Notes under the pieces: generated by a model
What the model was told of the DNA's origin: nothing
What the model saw: the letters and a program-made list of their open reading frames with translations, nothing else
Databases searched by the model: none
NCBI GenBank assembly: GCA_024711125.1
Contig: JANJTM010000077.1
Location: forward strand, 3,836-67,835
DNA: 64,000 bases
DNA from: Rhodothermales bacterium
Lineage (GTDB): Bacteria > Bacteroidota > Rhodothermia > Rhodothermales > UBA10348
Direction of reading: 5' to 3'
Shown: positions 9,382 to 48,956 of the stretch, piece by piece
How the letters are laid out: each line of letters opens with the position of its first letter
Position numbering within the stretch: position 1 is the first letter of the stretch
Made by a program: the position numbers and the translations under genes

Positions 9382-10319
9382 GTCCCCTGTCGCGAGCGGC
9401 TACGGTCCGCAACCGCGGGGTACGAGGCCGCGCCCACCTCAGGCAGCGTCGCCGCGCCCACCTCCGGCAGCGTCGCCGCCACCGCCTCGGGCCGCAGCAC
9501 CGCCACCGCCTGCCGCAGGAAACGCGGGACGACCGTGTCGTGGGTCACCTTGAGGTAATCCGGGTCCTCGAGACGCTCGAGGATCTGCTCGTACTTCGCG
9601 AGCCCGACCTTGCGGATCACGCCGTCGCGACGCTGATCGCTGCGGAAATGCCGGCTCATGCCCGGCGGGTCGGCTTCGGGGTGGAACTGGGTGCCGACGA
9701 GGTGTGGGCTGATGCGCACGGCCATCAGCGCGCGTTCGAGGGGGATGTGCGGCCGCGCCTTTTCGATCGCCAGCACCGAGGCGCCCATGGAACGCAGCGC
9801 GTCGACGCGGGGCTGCACGACCTGCCAGGACCGGAAGTCGGCCCCGTAGAACGGGTCGGGGAGTCCACGCAGGAGCACGTCGGCCTTGCCGGCCTTCGTC
9901 GGATGCACGGGAACGATGCCGAACGACGGGCTGCGGCGAGGCACGACCGACGCGAATCCGAAGAAGCGCGCCATCATCTGGAAGGAGTGGCAGATGAAGA
10001 GCACGAACTTCGGTGAGCCGTGCCCGCGCTCGTTGTGCGCGACCACCGAGTCGAGCCAGTCGAAATACCGCTTCTCCCAGGCCTTGCCCTCTCCGTCGAA
10101 GGGGCTGCCTGGGCCCCCGGAAGAGAGGTAGACGTCGTAGTCCAGCCCGGGCGCCTCGGCCTTGTACCGGGTCTCGTGCGTATCGAACGTGAGCGGAACC
10201 CCGAAGAACGATCCGTCGGCGGCCGTCAGCAGCTCGCACAGCGCCCGCATGCCCTCGTTGGGCTCGTTGTCGTACAGGTCCAGGATCGTCGCGCGGACGG
10301 GGGAAATCGCAGGCTGCAT
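9378..10319 (-). CDS. class-I glutamine amidotransferase-like protein
   Basis: 313 aa. Nucleophile elbow FICHSFQ and His-Glu pair in GTQFHPE. The C-terminus carries an 8-aa tandem repeat (ATLPEVGA). Confidence 0.8.
   Translation of the reverse strand: MQPAISPVRATILDLYDNEPNEGMRALCELLTAADGSFFGVPLTFDTHETRYKAEAPGLDYDVYLSSGGPGSPFDGEGKAWEKRYFDWLDSVVAHNERGHGSPKFVLFICHSFQMMARFFGFASVVPRRSPSFGIVPVHPTKAGKADVLLRGLPDPFYGADFRSWQVVQPRVDALRSMGASVLAIEKARPHIPLERALMAVRISPHLVGTQFHPEADPPGMSRHFRSDQRRDGVIRKVGLAKYEQILERLEDPDYLKVTHDTVVPRFLRQAVAVLRPEAVAATLPEVGAATLPEVGAASYPAVADRSRSRQGT
9427..9498. repeat. 24-bp tandem repeat (2 near-perfect copies plus 1 degenerate) inside the GATase 3-prime end
   Basis: GCCGCGCCCACCTC[A/C]GGCAGCGTC at 9427-9450 and 9451-9474, with a degenerate copy at 9475-9498. 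It is in frame and encodes the repeated ATLPEVGA. Confidence 0.85.
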
Positions 10320-25376: not shown

Positions 25377-25402
25377 TCCGGTCCGTCGTGCCGATCATCG
25401 GG

Positions 25403-25439
25403 GGAGCCCCGTCGCGTGCGGCGGGGCTCCTTTCTTTTT
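25403..25439 (+). terminator. intrinsic terminator of the exbB-exbD-exbD unit
   Basis: 9-bp stem GGAGCCCCG (25403-25411) / CGGGGCTCC (25422-25430) with a 10-nt loop, followed by TTTCTTTTT (25431-25439). Confidence 0.75.
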
Positions 25440-25511
25440 CGGGCTTCGGCGTCTACCGGGGGACCGAAAACGCGCCCGAAGGGTTGTAGCGACCACCCAG
25501 TCCCGCACGCC

Positions 25512-32400: not shown

Positions 32401-33519
32401 ATGTCGGAACAGTCATTCGAAGGCATCCTCGAACTGATCGGGGACAAGAAATTCGGGTTCATCCGGGAATTCCGTTCGGATCTCCCCAAGGGTCGCAGCG
32501 ACGCGTTCGTCGCCCCGCAGCTCGTCAAACGCTGGAAACTTCGCGACGGCGTGACCCTGACGGGGACCGTGAGACCGGGAAGGAGGGGGGACATGCAGGT
32601 CCATCACGTCGACACCGTGATGGGCGTCGATGCCGAGGCGTGGACGCGGTTCCGCAATTTCGAGTCGGGACACACCATCTTCCCGAACGAGAAGCTGAAC
32701 CTGGTTACCGATCCGCGCAACGTCACGATGCGGGTCGTGGATCTCGCCGCCCCGATCGGAAAGGGGCAGCGCGCGCTCATCGTGGCGCCCCCGCGGACGG
32801 GCAAGACCCACATCCTCAAGGAGATCGCCCGGGCGCTCGCCCACAACCACCCCGAGGTCACCGTCGTCGCGCTGCTCATCGACGAGCGGCCGGAGGAGGT
32901 GACCGACTTCAAGCGCACGACGAGCGCGATCGTCTTCGCGTCGTCCAACGACAACGAGGAGGACAACCACGTGCGCGTGGCGACGCTCGCCACCGAGTAC
33001 GCGAAGCGCCTGGTCGAGATGGACCGGGACGTGGTGATCCTGATGGACTCGCTGACCCGTCTCGGCCGCACGTTCAACCTCTACATGGGCGGTTCGGGCC
33101 GCACCATGTCGGGCGGCATCGACGCGGGCGCGCTCAAGATTCCGCGCAAGATCTTCGGATCGGCCCGCAACATCGAGAACGGGGGCTCCCTGACGATCGT
33201 GGCCACCGCGCTCATCGAGACGGGCAGCCGCATGGACCAGGTCATCTTCGAGGAGTTCAAGGGCACGGGCAACAGCGAGATCTGCCTCGACCGGGAGATG
33301 GCCAACAAGCGCATCTACCCCGCGATCAACCTGCGCAAGAGCGGTACGCGGAACGAGGAGGCCCTGCTCGGGGACCGCATCGAGCAGTACCGCAGGCTCT
33401 TCCGCGTGCTCAATTCGCGGCATCCGATCGAGGCGATGCAGGCGCTGCTGCGCCACGTGCAGATGACCCGTTCGAACGAGGACCTGCTCGACGAGCTGAT
33501 TCCGGCCGAAATGGACTGA
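32401..33519 (+). CDS. rho: transcription termination factor Rho (short form, 372 aa)
   Basis: Starts MSEQSFEGILELIGDKKFGFIRE, equivalent to about residue 50 of E. coli Rho. Walker A APPRTGKT, plus LLIDERPEEV and the Q/R-loop region. Confidence 0.92.
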   Translation: MSEQSFEGILELIGDKKFGFIREFRSDLPKGRSDAFVAPQLVKRWKLRDGVTLTGTVRPGRRGDMQVHHVDTVMGVDAEAWTRFRNFESGHTIFPNEKLNLVTDPRNVTMRVVDLAAPIGKGQRALIVAPPRTGKTHILKEIARALAHNHPEVTVVALLIDERPEEVTDFKRTTSAIVFASSNDNEEDNHVRVATLATEYAKRLVEMDRDVVILMDSLTRLGRTFNLYMGGSGRTMSGGIDAGALKIPRKIFGSARNIENGGSLTIVATALIETGSRMDQVIFEEFKGTGNSEICLDREMANKRIYPAINLRKSGTRNEEALLGDRIEQYRRLFRVLNSRHPIEAMQALLRHVQMTRSNEDLLDELIPAEMD

Positions 33520-33580
33520 GGCGCCGAGGTTATGCGGGGGCCATTGCGGGGTCAGGGGTTCGAACCAACCCGCGACCCCC

Positions 33581-34270
33581 GTGACCCCGATCCGGACCTG
33601 GCCCGATTCAGACCGCCCCCGCGAACGCCTGCTTCGCCTGGGCGCACCGGCGCTCTCCGATGCCGAACTGCTTGCGCTGATCCTCGGCGCGGGCGTCTCC
33701 ACGCGGGAAGGCGGCGTGACGGCCCTCGGCGTGGCGCGCGACCTCCTCGCCCGTCACGGCTCGCTCCGGCGTCTCGGACGGCGTCCCGGGCAGGAATGGA
33801 TGGACATCGCCGGGGTGGGCGCGGCCCGAGCGGCGCGGCTCGGCGCGGCCTTCGAAATCGGCCGGCGCGTGGCGTCGGAGCCGGTCGGTCCGCGTCCCCG
33901 GGTGCGCGGTCCGCATGACGTAGCCGCCGTATACGCCCCCGTGCTGCGGGACCTCGACCGCGAAGTGTTCCACGTCGCCCTGCTCAATACGGCCGGGGAG
34001 ATCGTGGCCGACCACCGGGCGAGCGCCGGAGGGCTCGCCTCTTCGATCGTCGAACCGCGCTCGGTCTTTCGCGCGGCGGTCCTGGAATCGGCGGCGGCGG
34101 TGGTCTGCGTGCACAATCACCCGTCGGGAAATCCCGAACCGAGTGCCGAGGACATCGCGGTCACGCGGCAGCTCGTCGAGGCCGGGCGGGTGCTCGGCAT
34201 TCCGCTGCGCGACCACGTCATCATCGCGGGCGACGGGTGGACGTCGCTGGCCGAGCGGGGGGCGGTGTAG
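33581..34270 (+). CDS. radC: RadC-family JAB/MPN-domain protein
   Basis: 229 aa. N-terminal HhH-like RPRERLLRLGAPALSDAELLALILG. JAMM motif HNHPSGNPEPSAEDIAVT. GTG start. Confidence 0.9.
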   Translation: MTPIRTWPDSDRPRERLLRLGAPALSDAELLALILGAGVSTREGGVTALGVARDLLARHGSLRRLGRRPGQEWMDIAGVGAARAARLGAAFEIGRRVASEPVGPRPRVRGPHDVAAVYAPVLRDLDREVFHVALLNTAGEIVADHRASAGGLASSIVEPRSVFRAAVLESAAAVVCVHNHPSGNPEPSAEDIAVTRQLVEAGRVLGIPLRDHVIIAGDGWTSLAERGAV

Positions 34271-34444
34271 CCGGGCCAGACCGCGTTCGCGCACCGCGGT
34301 CGGGCGGGTACGGCGCGGATACCCGGTGCGTGAACCTGCCCTGCGGCAATCGCGCAGCTCCGGAAGCGGTCGGGTGGGTGGACCCCTCCCGCGCCCGTGC
34401 GCACGCCTGTTGGGGCTGCAAAGTGCAAAAAGGACTACGTCCGC

Positions 34445-34650
34445 GAATTCCACTTCGCGGCCTCCCAAAGTGGCCCGGGAAGTGGAATATGGCCTCGAAT
34501 TCCACTTCGCGGCCTCCAAAGTGGCTCGGGAAGTGGAATATGGCCTCGTTTTCCACTTTGCGGCCTCCAAACGGGCTTCGGAAGTGGAATACGGCCTCCA
34601 ATTCCACTCCTCCGTCGTGAGCGGGGCGGGGAATTCCATTTCCACGCCCT
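34445..34650. repeat. tandem array of 51-52-nt hairpin-forming units (3 good copies plus 1 degenerate)
   Basis: Units at 34445-34496 (52 nt), 34497-34547 (51 nt) and 34548-34598 (51 nt), with a degenerate copy at 34599-~34650. Each good unit holds TTCCACTT[C/T] and its complement GAAGTGGAA about 22 nt apart. Confidence 0.9.
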
Positions 34651-34888
34651 TCCGCGCCCCCCCCGCCGCACGGCACCACCGCACTCCCTGCCGCTGCGGC
34701 TGCCTTCGAGCGCACGCGTGCCCGGAGGTCGATGCGTCCCTCAGACATGGCCGCCGATCCGGCGCGCCACTACGAGCTGTGACGTCGGGTGGGCGGTCGC
34801 CCGATTGGCCGAGTTTTCTTCCGGCGTGGTGGACCCGGACGGGCCGAACGGGATTGAACCGGCTTCCGAACCTTGTCAGCAACCGTCC

Positions 34889-36328
34889 ATGACCGACGTC
34901 TTCGAGAAGATCGTTTCCCTCAGCAAGCGCCGCGGCTTCATTTTCCAGTCTTCGGAGGTCTACGGCGGGCTCGCGGCCACGTACGACTACGGGCCGCTGG
35001 GCGTCGAACTGAAGCGCAACGTCATGCAGCGGTGGTGGAACGCGATGGTGTACCGGCACGACAACGTGGCCGGGCTCGACGCCGCGATCCTGATGCATCC
35101 GACCGTCTGGAAGGCGTCGGGGCACGTGGACGCCTTCAACGATCCCATGATCGACGACAAGGTGTCGAAGGTGCGCTACCGGGCCGACCAGCTCATCGAG
35201 GGCTACATCGACCGGCTCAGGAAGAAGGGCAAGGACGGCGAGGCCGACCGCGTGTACCAGGCCCTGGTGGACGCGCTCAACGCCGAGGACCAGGCCAAGG
35301 CGCTCTACGACATCATCATGTCGGAAGAGATCAAGTCGCCCGATTCGGGCATGTTCGACTGGACCGAAGTGCGCCAGTTCAACCTGATGTTCGCGACCAA
35401 GCTGGGCGCGCTCGCCGGGGCCGACTCGACGGTGTACCTGCGCCCCGAGACCGCGCAGGGCATCTTCGTGAACTTCCACAACGTGCGCGAAACGGCCCGC
35501 ATGGCGGTTCCGTTCGGCATCGCGCAGATCGGGAAGGCCTTCCGCAACGAGATCGTGGCGCGGCAGTTCATCTTCCGCATGCGCGAGTTCGAGCAGATGG
35601 AGATGCAGTACTTCGTCAAGCCGGGCGCGCAGAAGGAGGCGTTCGAGGAGTGGCGGGCGAAGCGCATGCAGTGGCACCTCGACAACGGCATCCGCCCGTC
35701 GAAGCTGCGCTGGCACGAGCACGAGAAGCTCGCGCACTACGCCGATGCGGCGTTCGACGTGCAGTACGAGTTCCCGATCGGATGGCAGGAAGTCGAGGGC
35801 ATCCACTCGCGCACCGATTTCGACCTGAAGGGCCACCAGGAGCACTCGGGCAAGAACATGCAGTACTTCGACCCCCAGACCAACGACCGCTACATCCCGT
35901 ACGTGGTCGAGACGTCGGCGGGCCTCGACCGCACGGTGCTCATGCTGCTCTGCGAGGCCTACCGCGAGGAAGAGGTGGAAGGGGAGACGCGCGTCGTGCT
36001 GAAGTTCCACCCGTCGATCGCGCCCGTGAAGGCCGGCATCTTTCCGCTCGTCAAGAAGGACGGCATGCCCGAGGTCGCGCACGCGATCGAGGCCGACCTG
36101 CGGCAGCATTTCCTGACCGAGTACGACGAGAAGGGCGCCGTCGGCCGCCGCTACCGCCGTATGGACGAGGTCGGAACCCCGTACTGCGTGACCGTCGACG
36201 GGGAGACCCTCGAGAACGGCACGGTCACCGTGCGCGAGCGCGATTCCATGCAGCAGGTGCGCATCGACAAGAGCCAGGTCGCGACCTGGATTTTCGACCG
36301 CATGCGCGCCTGGACGCCGGGCGAATGA
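34889..36328 (+). CDS. glyQS: glycine--tRNA ligase (dimeric class II GlyQS type)
   Basis: Tail of track ORF 34397-36328 from ATG 34889 (MTDVFEKIVSLSKRRGFIFQSSEVYGGL...). 479 aa with the full-length GlyRS pattern. Confidence 0.93.
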   Translation: MTDVFEKIVSLSKRRGFIFQSSEVYGGLAATYDYGPLGVELKRNVMQRWWNAMVYRHDNVAGLDAAILMHPTVWKASGHVDAFNDPMIDDKVSKVRYRADQLIEGYIDRLRKKGKDGEADRVYQALVDALNAEDQAKALYDIIMSEEIKSPDSGMFDWTEVRQFNLMFATKLGALAGADSTVYLRPETAQGIFVNFHNVRETARMAVPFGIAQIGKAFRNEIVARQFIFRMREFEQMEMQYFVKPGAQKEAFEEWRAKRMQWHLDNGIRPSKLRWHEHEKLAHYADAAFDVQYEFPIGWQEVEGIHSRTDFDLKGHQEHSGKNMQYFDPQTNDRYIPYVVETSAGLDRTVLMLLCEAYREEEVEGETRVVLKFHPSIAPVKAGIFPLVKKDGMPEVAHAIEADLRQHFLTEYDEKGAVGRRYRRMDEVGTPYCVTVDGETLENGTVTVRERDSMQQVRIDKSQVATWIFDRMRAWTPGE

Positions 36329-48879: not shown

Positions 48880-48902
48880 GCCTCGACTCCATCGTGCGGA
48901 GA

Positions 48903-48934
48903 GGGGCTCCCGGCCGGCGCCGGGGGCCCCTTTT
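48903..48934 (+). terminator. strong intrinsic terminator closing the 39761-48879 unit
   Basis: 12-bp stem 48903-48914 / 48919-48930 (GGGGCTCCCGGC / GCCGGGGGCCCC, one G-U pair), a 4-nt loop, then TTTT (48931-48934). Confidence 0.75.
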
Positions 48935-48956
48935 CGTCCGCGGACCCGACGTCGCC

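Follow-up and report, generated by a model that had tools for sequence, protein, structure and literature searches.

Genomic context of the radC–glyQS spacer

The DNA analysed here is a 64-kb stretch (hereafter the window), which was placed in the Rhodothermales by its RadC and GlyQS homologues. The spacer under study lies between two plus-strand genes, radC and glyQS. The upstream gene (33581–34270) encodes a RadC/JAB family protein with Pfam matches to RadC (6e-39) and UPF0758_N (1.2e-21), and its homologues are RadC proteins of Rhodothermales. The downstream gene (34889–36328) encodes a dimeric class II glycyl-tRNA synthetase with the Pfam domains tRNA-synt_2b and HGTP_anticodon, and exactly the same protein was found on a Logan contig. 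The radC stop at 34270 and the glyQS ATG at 34889 enclose a gap of 618 nt (34271–34888), as described in the original prediction. The gene order rho, radC, a variable slot and glyQS is kept among relatives.

An inverted repeat with 11-nt arms (91% complementary) forms a hairpin right 3′ of the radC stop (34275–34305), where the left side of the spacer is conserved between strains. It is followed by a plus-strand block at 34307–34371 that is common to the window and the sister lineage L036 (blastn, 78% over 65 nt, E 3e-8). On the right, a five-way alignment revealed a conserved plus-strand block directly upstream of glyQS (34795–34888), which is conserved even in L027 (67% RadC) and contains 24 nt that are 100% identical to L024 and L036. 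A terminator-like hairpin with a T-rich tail is located at 34794–34821, within this block. The block is likely the promoter and 5′ UTR of glyQS, and it begins at about 34795, approximately 145 nt downstream of the hairpin array described below. The promoter search reported no promoter-like site in the radC–glyQS spacer and none preceding the array.

Anatomy of the hairpin array

TRF reported a tandem repeat at 34444–34608 with a period of 51, 3.2 copies, 88% matches and a score of 251, the highest in the 64-kb window (the runner-up scored 99). The repeat comprises three near-identical plus-strand units at 34445–34496 (52 nt), 34497–34547 (51 nt) and 34548–34598 (51 nt), followed by a degenerate unit 4 (34599–34650), all of which had been recognized in the original prediction. 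A degenerate unit 0 upstream (34413–34444, plus strand) had been missed; it belongs to a repeat-family copy at 34413–34463 with 63% identity to the reference. Including these degenerate end units, the array extends over approximately 34413–34650. Its G + C content is 58–60%, compared with approximately 70% in the surroundings.

Units 1–3 each form a hairpin of approximately 40 nt with 13–16 paired positions and plus-strand folding energies of −20 to −25 kcal/mol (z −2.3 to −4.4). Unit 1, which consists of the hairpin TTCCACTTCGCGGCC...GGCCCGGGAAGTGGAA and a linker, folds at −24.4 kcal/mol (z −3.9), unit 2 at −25.3 kcal/mol (z −4.4), and unit 3, with five substitutions relative to unit 2, at −19.9 kcal/mol (z −2.3). 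The whole-array fold has a z score of −4.65. The pairing elements named in the original prediction were found in place: TTCCACTTC (34448–34456) and GAAGTGGAA (34479–34487) are exact complements, AAGTGG is present at 34468–34473, and so is the 12-nt linker TATGGCCTCGAA. Three palindromes of the form GTGGAAT-N10-ATTCCAC span the unit junctions at 34482–34505, 34533–34556 and 34584–34607 (three matches against 0.07 expected). In dinucleotide shuffles, the number of chance matches was approximately zero for the 26-nt unit core, the 40-nt hairpin pattern and the junction palindrome.

Units 1 and 2 differ by one indel and one substitution, unit 3 by five substitutions, and the end units are degenerate; such a divergence gradient inside the array would be typical of recent internal amplification. 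The hairpin units are extragenic and run head to tail, with no alternating orientation. Identical sequence covering unit 1 and most of unit 2 was present in at least four independent Logan assemblies, all of which stop at the same base (34529), as assemblers are expected to do at a repeat. The array is not an artefact of one assembly, and the exact copy number given here is that of the window.

Coding potential and known RNA families

The array is non-coding, as had been proposed: the ORFs running through it have no Pfam match, no gene is called there in public assemblies, and the period in relatives is 52. A minus-strand ORF (34221–34748), which begins at the old ATG of an HTH gene (see below) and in which the repeat reads as a 17-aa motif, was rejected as coding because it has no Pfam match, unit 1 shifts the frame, the relatives' period is 52, and the ORF runs antisense into radC. 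We also rejected the repeat as the C-terminus of the HTH protein. The tblastn match (E 0.06 in a 750-nt target) was not significant, and this reading is contradicted by L024, which has an intact HTH gene plus a separate array.

The earlier statement that the array fits no known RNA family was confirmed with Rfam, which gave no match on the array at E ≤ 10 in a sensitive scan of 33500–35500 and none at the gathering threshold in the window, L024 or L036. A terminator scan reported no intrinsic terminator in units 1–3; the degenerate unit 4 is the sole array unit with a terminator-like site, a weak one formed by a hairpin and a T-rich tail at 34610–34641. The array differs from a CRISPR in that the repetition takes in the entire 51-nt period and leaves no unique spacers. 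An origin or terminus, suggested by the resemblance of TCCAC to the DnaA-box core, was rejected, as GC skew has no turning point at the array site.

Strain variation and the layout in sister lineages

Logan contig L001 encodes RadC and GlyQS proteins identical to those of the window, and its flanks are 98.0% identical over 1.1 kb and 98.4% identical over 11.6 kb (12.7 kb together). L001 keeps the hairpin right 3′ of the radC stop. The 367-nt segment that carries the array in the window (34379–34745) is strain-variable: it was unaligned to L001 both in the alignment and by blastn, and L001 has 139 nt of unrelated sequence in its place, with two different 13-nt tandem repeats. Because this strain has identical RadC and GlyQS and no array, comparison of the two strains indicates that the array is dispensable within the species.

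The RadC proteins of L024 and L025 are 89% identical to that of the window, and the GlyQS of L036 is 93% identical. In these three sister lineages, radC is followed by a short spacer, a palindromic array with a 52-nt period, the minus-strand genes HTH_3 and DUF2178, a conserved block of approximately 95–120 nt, and glyQS. The two minus-strand genes encode a 72-aa XRE-type HTH_3 protein and a 148-aa DUF2178 membrane protein, and have a sigma-70-like promoter of their own. The HTH gene adjacent to the array is conserved at 98%, versus 91% for radC. In L024 and L036, the array is located between two convergent 3′ ends, approximately 0.9–1.1 kb from glyQS and beyond two opposite-strand genes. The two arrays differ in extent; TRF reported that of L036 at 2718–2850, with 2.6 copies and 70% matches.

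The palindrome GTGGAAT-N10-ATTCCAC recurs exactly at the orthologous position of L036 (2729–2752), and with one mismatch in L024. It is the only part of the array that is exactly common to the window and L036, and the chance of an exact match in the 9.4-kb locus was estimated at <1e-4. Reciprocal profile HMMs of the window units and the L024/L036 units gave no match either way. The window and L036 arrays appear to be positional orthologues, since each starts shortly after the post-radC block (34307–34371 in the window). We treated the window and sister arrays as heavily diverged positional orthologues and not as a proven sequence family, because their orthology is indicated by position, period (51–52 versus 52) and the shared core, not by whole-unit homology.

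The window carries the scar of a lost cassette on the minus strand at 34722–34787. In this scar, the first ~27 nt of the HTH_3 gene, with its ATG at 34748, overlap with the final ~18 codons of the DUF2178 gene, and its sequence is 85–88% identical over 66 nt to L036 and L024 (blastn, E 8e-16 and 2e-19, respectively). The DUF2178 C-terminus was also recovered from it by tblastn (18 aa, 78%, E 1e-6). Both genes are intact in L024, L025 and L036. The window has lost the DUF2178 body together with the cassette promoter, and L001 keeps the DUF2178 end only. The post-radC slot documents a decay series that may be called datable, from an intact HTH–DUF2178 cassette through scar plus array to scar only. 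A search with DUF2178 for co-occurrence of array and cassette elsewhere returned one 98% relative only, with no wider context. PADLOC gave no defence-system match for DUF2178 and only generic HTH matches for the HTH protein. The literature search brought up no work on DUF2178 and none of relevance to REP elements in Rhodothermus.

What occupies the slot after radC varies from each sampled lineage to the next. In L027, it is a 297-nt spacer with an unrelated 34-nt repeat; in L035, it holds two genes without a Pfam match and a textbook bidirectional terminator; and in L034, it holds a beta-propeller gene, with no glyQS. The array is absent in L027 and L035, and other accessory genes occupy the slot in more distant Rhodothermales. 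These comparisons mark the post-radC slot as a hot spot of indels and recombination and, on a small scale, of the gain and loss of genes. Breaks right 3′ of radC also occur in several assemblies from the L027 lineage.

Divergence and pairing registers

The arrays of L024 and L036 are 81.5% identical, plus indels. Between the same two lineages, third-codon-position identity is 77.6% for radC, 90.6% for glyQS and 90.6% for DUF2178. The array therefore appears, from these values, to drift at about the synonymous rate, that is, near-neutrally, between the sister lineages.

The original prediction stated that the array can fold in at least three mutually exclusive registers. The pairings themselves are present, but they do not count as independent evidence of a switch. 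Arm-by-arm counts of Watson–Crick pairs (of 16 positions) gave 13, 12 and 9 within units and 13, 11 and 9 between units in the window, 14 and 13 within and 10, 11 and 8 between in L024, and 12 and 8 within and 13, 12 and 6 between in L036. The best register is intra-unit in L024 and inter-unit in L036, and no register is kept consistently across L024, L036 and the window. Units 1 and 2 of the window hardly differ, and for this reason the two registers are nearly equivalent over its first two units and junctions. Substitutions in L036 mostly break pairs and are not compensatory. The better fold is on the plus strand for the window units and for unit a of L024, and on the minus strand for unit b of L024. 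Alternative registers must appear in any head-to-tail repeat of a palindrome; in a tandem palindrome, they should not be read as a riboswitch-like device.

Search for further copies

Neither the unit, nor the arms-plus-core pattern, nor the junction palindrome has a further copy in the 64-kb window. A profile HMM built from seven units and run without filters found this locus only, in the window and in approximately 45 kb of relatives' contigs. An exact 19-mer search against 185,579 GTDB species genomes returned nine single matches in unrelated phyla with no partner arm; this is approximately the number estimated by chance, and the one match in Gemmatimonadales is inside a coding region. The 40-nt hairpin pattern had one unrelated match in the JGI metagenomes, apparently in coding sequence and with no repeat there. 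Two scans of IMG/VR gave chance-level single matches without a partner arm, and blastn with the variable segment as a 369-nt query matched nothing in the phage and plasmid collections. Within the sequence searched (the 64-kb window and ~45 kb of relatives' contigs), the array is not a generic dispersed REP-like family; the abundance of scattered copies that the original prediction had named as a refutation was not observed.

Origin and possible roles of the array

The best explanation, which we regard as somewhat more probable than all others combined, is a locus-specific, strain-variable hairpin minisatellite (VNTR-like), whose palindromic 51–52-nt unit of a ~40-nt imperfect hairpin and a ~12-nt linker would have grown by slippage. 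The array is a head-to-tail repeat with a unit in the 10–100-nt range in non-coding DNA, it is polymorphic in presence or length (absent in L001, of different extents in L024 and L036), and its unit sequence evolves without purifying selection (81.5% between L024 and L036, versus 77.6–90.6% at third codon positions). The ancestral layout may have been radC followed by palindromic repeats in the convergent 3′ gap with the minus-strand HTH_3 and DUF2178 genes, and then glyQS. The window lineage would have lost the DUF2178 body and the cassette promoter, and the decay of the HTH gene would have left the 66-nt scar. The palindrome GTGGAAT-N10-ATTCCAC in the old convergent gap may have been the seed of the array, from which one unit was then presumably amplified or homogenized through slipped-strand mispairing or unequal recombination, giving three near-identical copies. 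Direct repeats that form hairpins readily undergo both processes. Any role of the array might be that of generic hairpins ending the rho–radC transcript, and formerly also the convergent HTH–DUF2178 transcript, as an end-stabilizer or a weak insulator.

Some points weigh against a minisatellite. The near-identity of units 1–3 could reflect selection or gene conversion keeping a functional array. A palindromic array persists at one position across lineages ~10% apart in RadC, which is somewhat long for mere junk DNA, and the window and L036 have the GTGGAAT-N10-ATTCCAC core exactly in common. A functional lineage-specific element could be either a hairpin recombination or attachment site for the exchange of small cassettes (HTH–DUF2178 and others) in the radC–glyQS slot, or a processed multi-copy small RNA. 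It would be in line with a 52-nt palindromic array at one position in three lineages, with the exact core and with the HTH gene at 98% versus radC at 91%, but we give it very little credence. A functional RNA 3′-end element is unlikely, though not far-fetched. By analogy with REP/BIME or BOX hairpins that stabilize upstream mRNA, it would terminate transcription from both sides, or bar exonucleases, between the convergent radC and HTH–DUF2178 genes, and in the window would now serve as a structured 3′ UTR of the rho–radC transcript. The array of L024 and L036 is in a convergent 3′ gap with no canonical terminator, only a weak one inside the array. The distant relative L035 has its textbook bidirectional terminator in the equivalent gap; moreover, the palindromes fold on both strands, and the best-kept palindrome of L036 is flanked by AAAA and TTTT. 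However, canonical terminators elsewhere in the window genome consist of a GC-rich stem and a T tract, while the array hairpins are more AT-rich and without T tracts. The same-species strain L001 also manages without the array, and the L036 hairpins decay at a neutral rate.

The palindromic core can also be read at the DNA level, as an operator-like site for a dimeric protein, with a 24-bp palindrome repeated at a 51–52-bp period (~5 helical turns) on one helix face. The core is the only part exactly common to the window and L036, the arms are spaced at 31 and 21 nt, close to whole helical turns, and an XRE-type HTH gene adjoins the array in the sister lineages. Yet the 64-kb window has no further copy of the site, which lies past the HTH gene on its 3′ side and not at its promoter; that promoter carries a different, AT-rich palindrome. 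The sites are most numerous and best kept where the HTH gene is dead and are degraded where it is intact, and at ~80% neutral identity, it is not improbable that one copy out of three kept 14 of 14 positions. We consider such a protein-binding array improbable. A dispersed REP/MITE-like family mobilized in trans, for example by a RAYT or IS200/IS605-type transposase, with one cluster seen here, is very improbable. Among the three options of the original prediction (a structured RNA, a protein-binding array and a REP-like repeat), the REP-like repeat is the closest in anatomy: a ~40-nt imperfect palindrome, extragenic and clustered, at an indel hot spot and differing in presence between strains. 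Its dispersal did not hold, with no second copy in the window or the relatives' ~45 kb by the unfiltered profile HMM, no multi-copy genome among the 185,579 species representatives, and nothing in the JGI metagenomes or IMG/VR beyond chance-level singles; REP families usually occur every 5–10 kb. The units are also head to tail and have no GTAG-type conserved 5′ tetranucleotide.

The reading preferred in the original prediction was an RNA with alternative folds, either a cis-regulatory leader or attenuator of glyQS or a free-standing sRNA. The array is on the same strand as and upstream of glyQS, alternative pairings exist, and the plus strand of the window units folds 3–6 kcal/mol better than the minus strand owing to G–U pairs. 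Against this, neither a T-box nor another Rfam family matches, no promoter-like site precedes the array and no pairing register is conserved. The array is missing in L001 beside an identical GlyQS, drifts near the synonymous rate, and in L024 and L036 has two genes of the opposite strand between it and glyQS. Because of the absence in L001, the layout in the sister lineages, the scar, and the conserved glyQS upstream block that starts only at 34795, the comparative data largely refute a leader, and the array does not appear to regulate glyQS; we judge the leader or sRNA reading to be extremely improbable.

For this lineage, a hairpin minisatellite in the post-radC slot would represent a VNTR locus for typing strains and a point at which assemblies break. 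Its import for biology at large is small, as it adds another hairpin-forming intergenic minisatellite, here in uncultured Rhodothermales.

Comparison with known systems

The T-box leader of glyQS in Firmicutes is alike only in its position upstream of glyQS and in the notion of alternative helices. A T-box is built differently from these repeats, Rfam gave no match, and the array is not conserved with glyQS, its linkage not being kept in L001, L024, L036, L027 and L035. The ToxI arrays of type III toxin–antitoxin systems (36-nt tandem repeats) are likewise short tandem arrays of structured repeats. No endoribonuclease toxin gene follows the array, which is followed by the scar and glyQS in the window and by the HTH 3′ end on the other strand in L024 and L036.

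REP/BIME elements of Enterobacteria and Pseudomonas and the BOX elements of Streptococcus pneumoniae, with tandem boxB, are clustered extragenic imperfect palindromes of 35–45 nt. They are often located at gene 3′ ends or between convergent genes, and pairing between elements is possible as an alternative. The array shares with REP/BIME an imperfect palindrome of ~20–40 nt in extragenic DNA, here the radC–glyQS spacer. REP/BIME and BOX elements differ in being dispersed through a genome in tens to hundreds of copies, whereas none was found here beyond the locus in the 64-kb window, the ~45 kb of relatives' contigs or the database scans. BIME units alternate in orientation, with linkers, while the units of the array are direct repeats.

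The VNTR-type intergenic minisatellites, such as the mycobacterial MIRU (51–77-bp units), are alike in their head-to-tail units of ~50 nt, their location in intergenic spacers and their strain polymorphism. They also share the divergence gradient within the array and a sequence without demonstrable constraint. The likeness to MIRU is one of architecture, with no sequence relation. MIRU form one sequence family, found at approximately 40 loci in a genome, and are not markedly palindromic, whereas here a single locus is occupied and the unit is a long hairpin. The array is ordinary in kind and belongs to the known class of intergenic palindromic minisatellites.

Variable content of the radC–glyQS spacer

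In a strain of the same species that was 98% identical to the window (Logan contig L001), the array-bearing segment at window 34379–34745 was replaced by an alternative allele (L001 1135–1273). This allele contained two unrelated 13-nt tandem repeats, TCGCCTCGCCGTA (4.2 copies) and GTGTTGCGTGGCG (2.9 copies), demonstrating that one spacer yields differing tandem repeats from strain to strain. Several independent short-read assemblies (Logan contigs L019–L023) began within a single 55-nt stretch of rho, at window ~33198–33253, which lies ~330–380 nt 5′ of radC. The clustering of these contig starts hints at a second site of strain variation or repetition within rho.

The window also carried the scar of a lost two-gene cassette on the minus strand (34722–34787), in which the 5′ end of an HTH_3 gene of the XRE type overlapped the 3′ end of a DUF2178 gene encoding a membrane protein. 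Both genes were intact in the sister lineages (contigs L024, L025, and L036). The HTH gene was 98% identical between L024 and L036, whereas radC was just 91% identical. In L036, the array and the HTH gene were set apart by an additional ~270 nt of non-coding DNA (L036 2876–3130) that included a 13-nt repeat, GGGCCACGGTCCC (2.7 copies), and was absent from L024.

Across Rhodothermales, the content of the slot 3′ of radC varied: it held a 34-nt G-rich tandem repeat in L027 (4842–4924), two genes without a Pfam match and a canonical bidirectional terminator in L035 (3748–5863), and a beta-propeller gene in L034 (3732–4712), in which the linkage to glyQS was lost.

Conserved block upstream of glyQS

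A block of ~95 nt upstream of glyQS (window 34795–34888) was conserved clade-wide, down to 67% RadC identity. Among its features were a hairpin that resembled a terminator and carried a T-rich tail (34794–34821) and a GGATTGAA motif, and the block matched no family in Rfam. This block is likely the glyQS promoter/5′ UTR.

Other repeats and terminators in the window

A tandem repeat with a 24-nt period was located at 9427–9518 (2.2 copies at 96% matches, or 3.4 copies at 77% when extended), and its TRF score ranked second in the window. Canonical intrinsic terminators, each with a T tract after a long GC-rich stem, were found at ~621–670, ~25391–25440, and ~48891–48940, indicating that standard terminators are in use in this genome and that the hairpins of the array differ from them.
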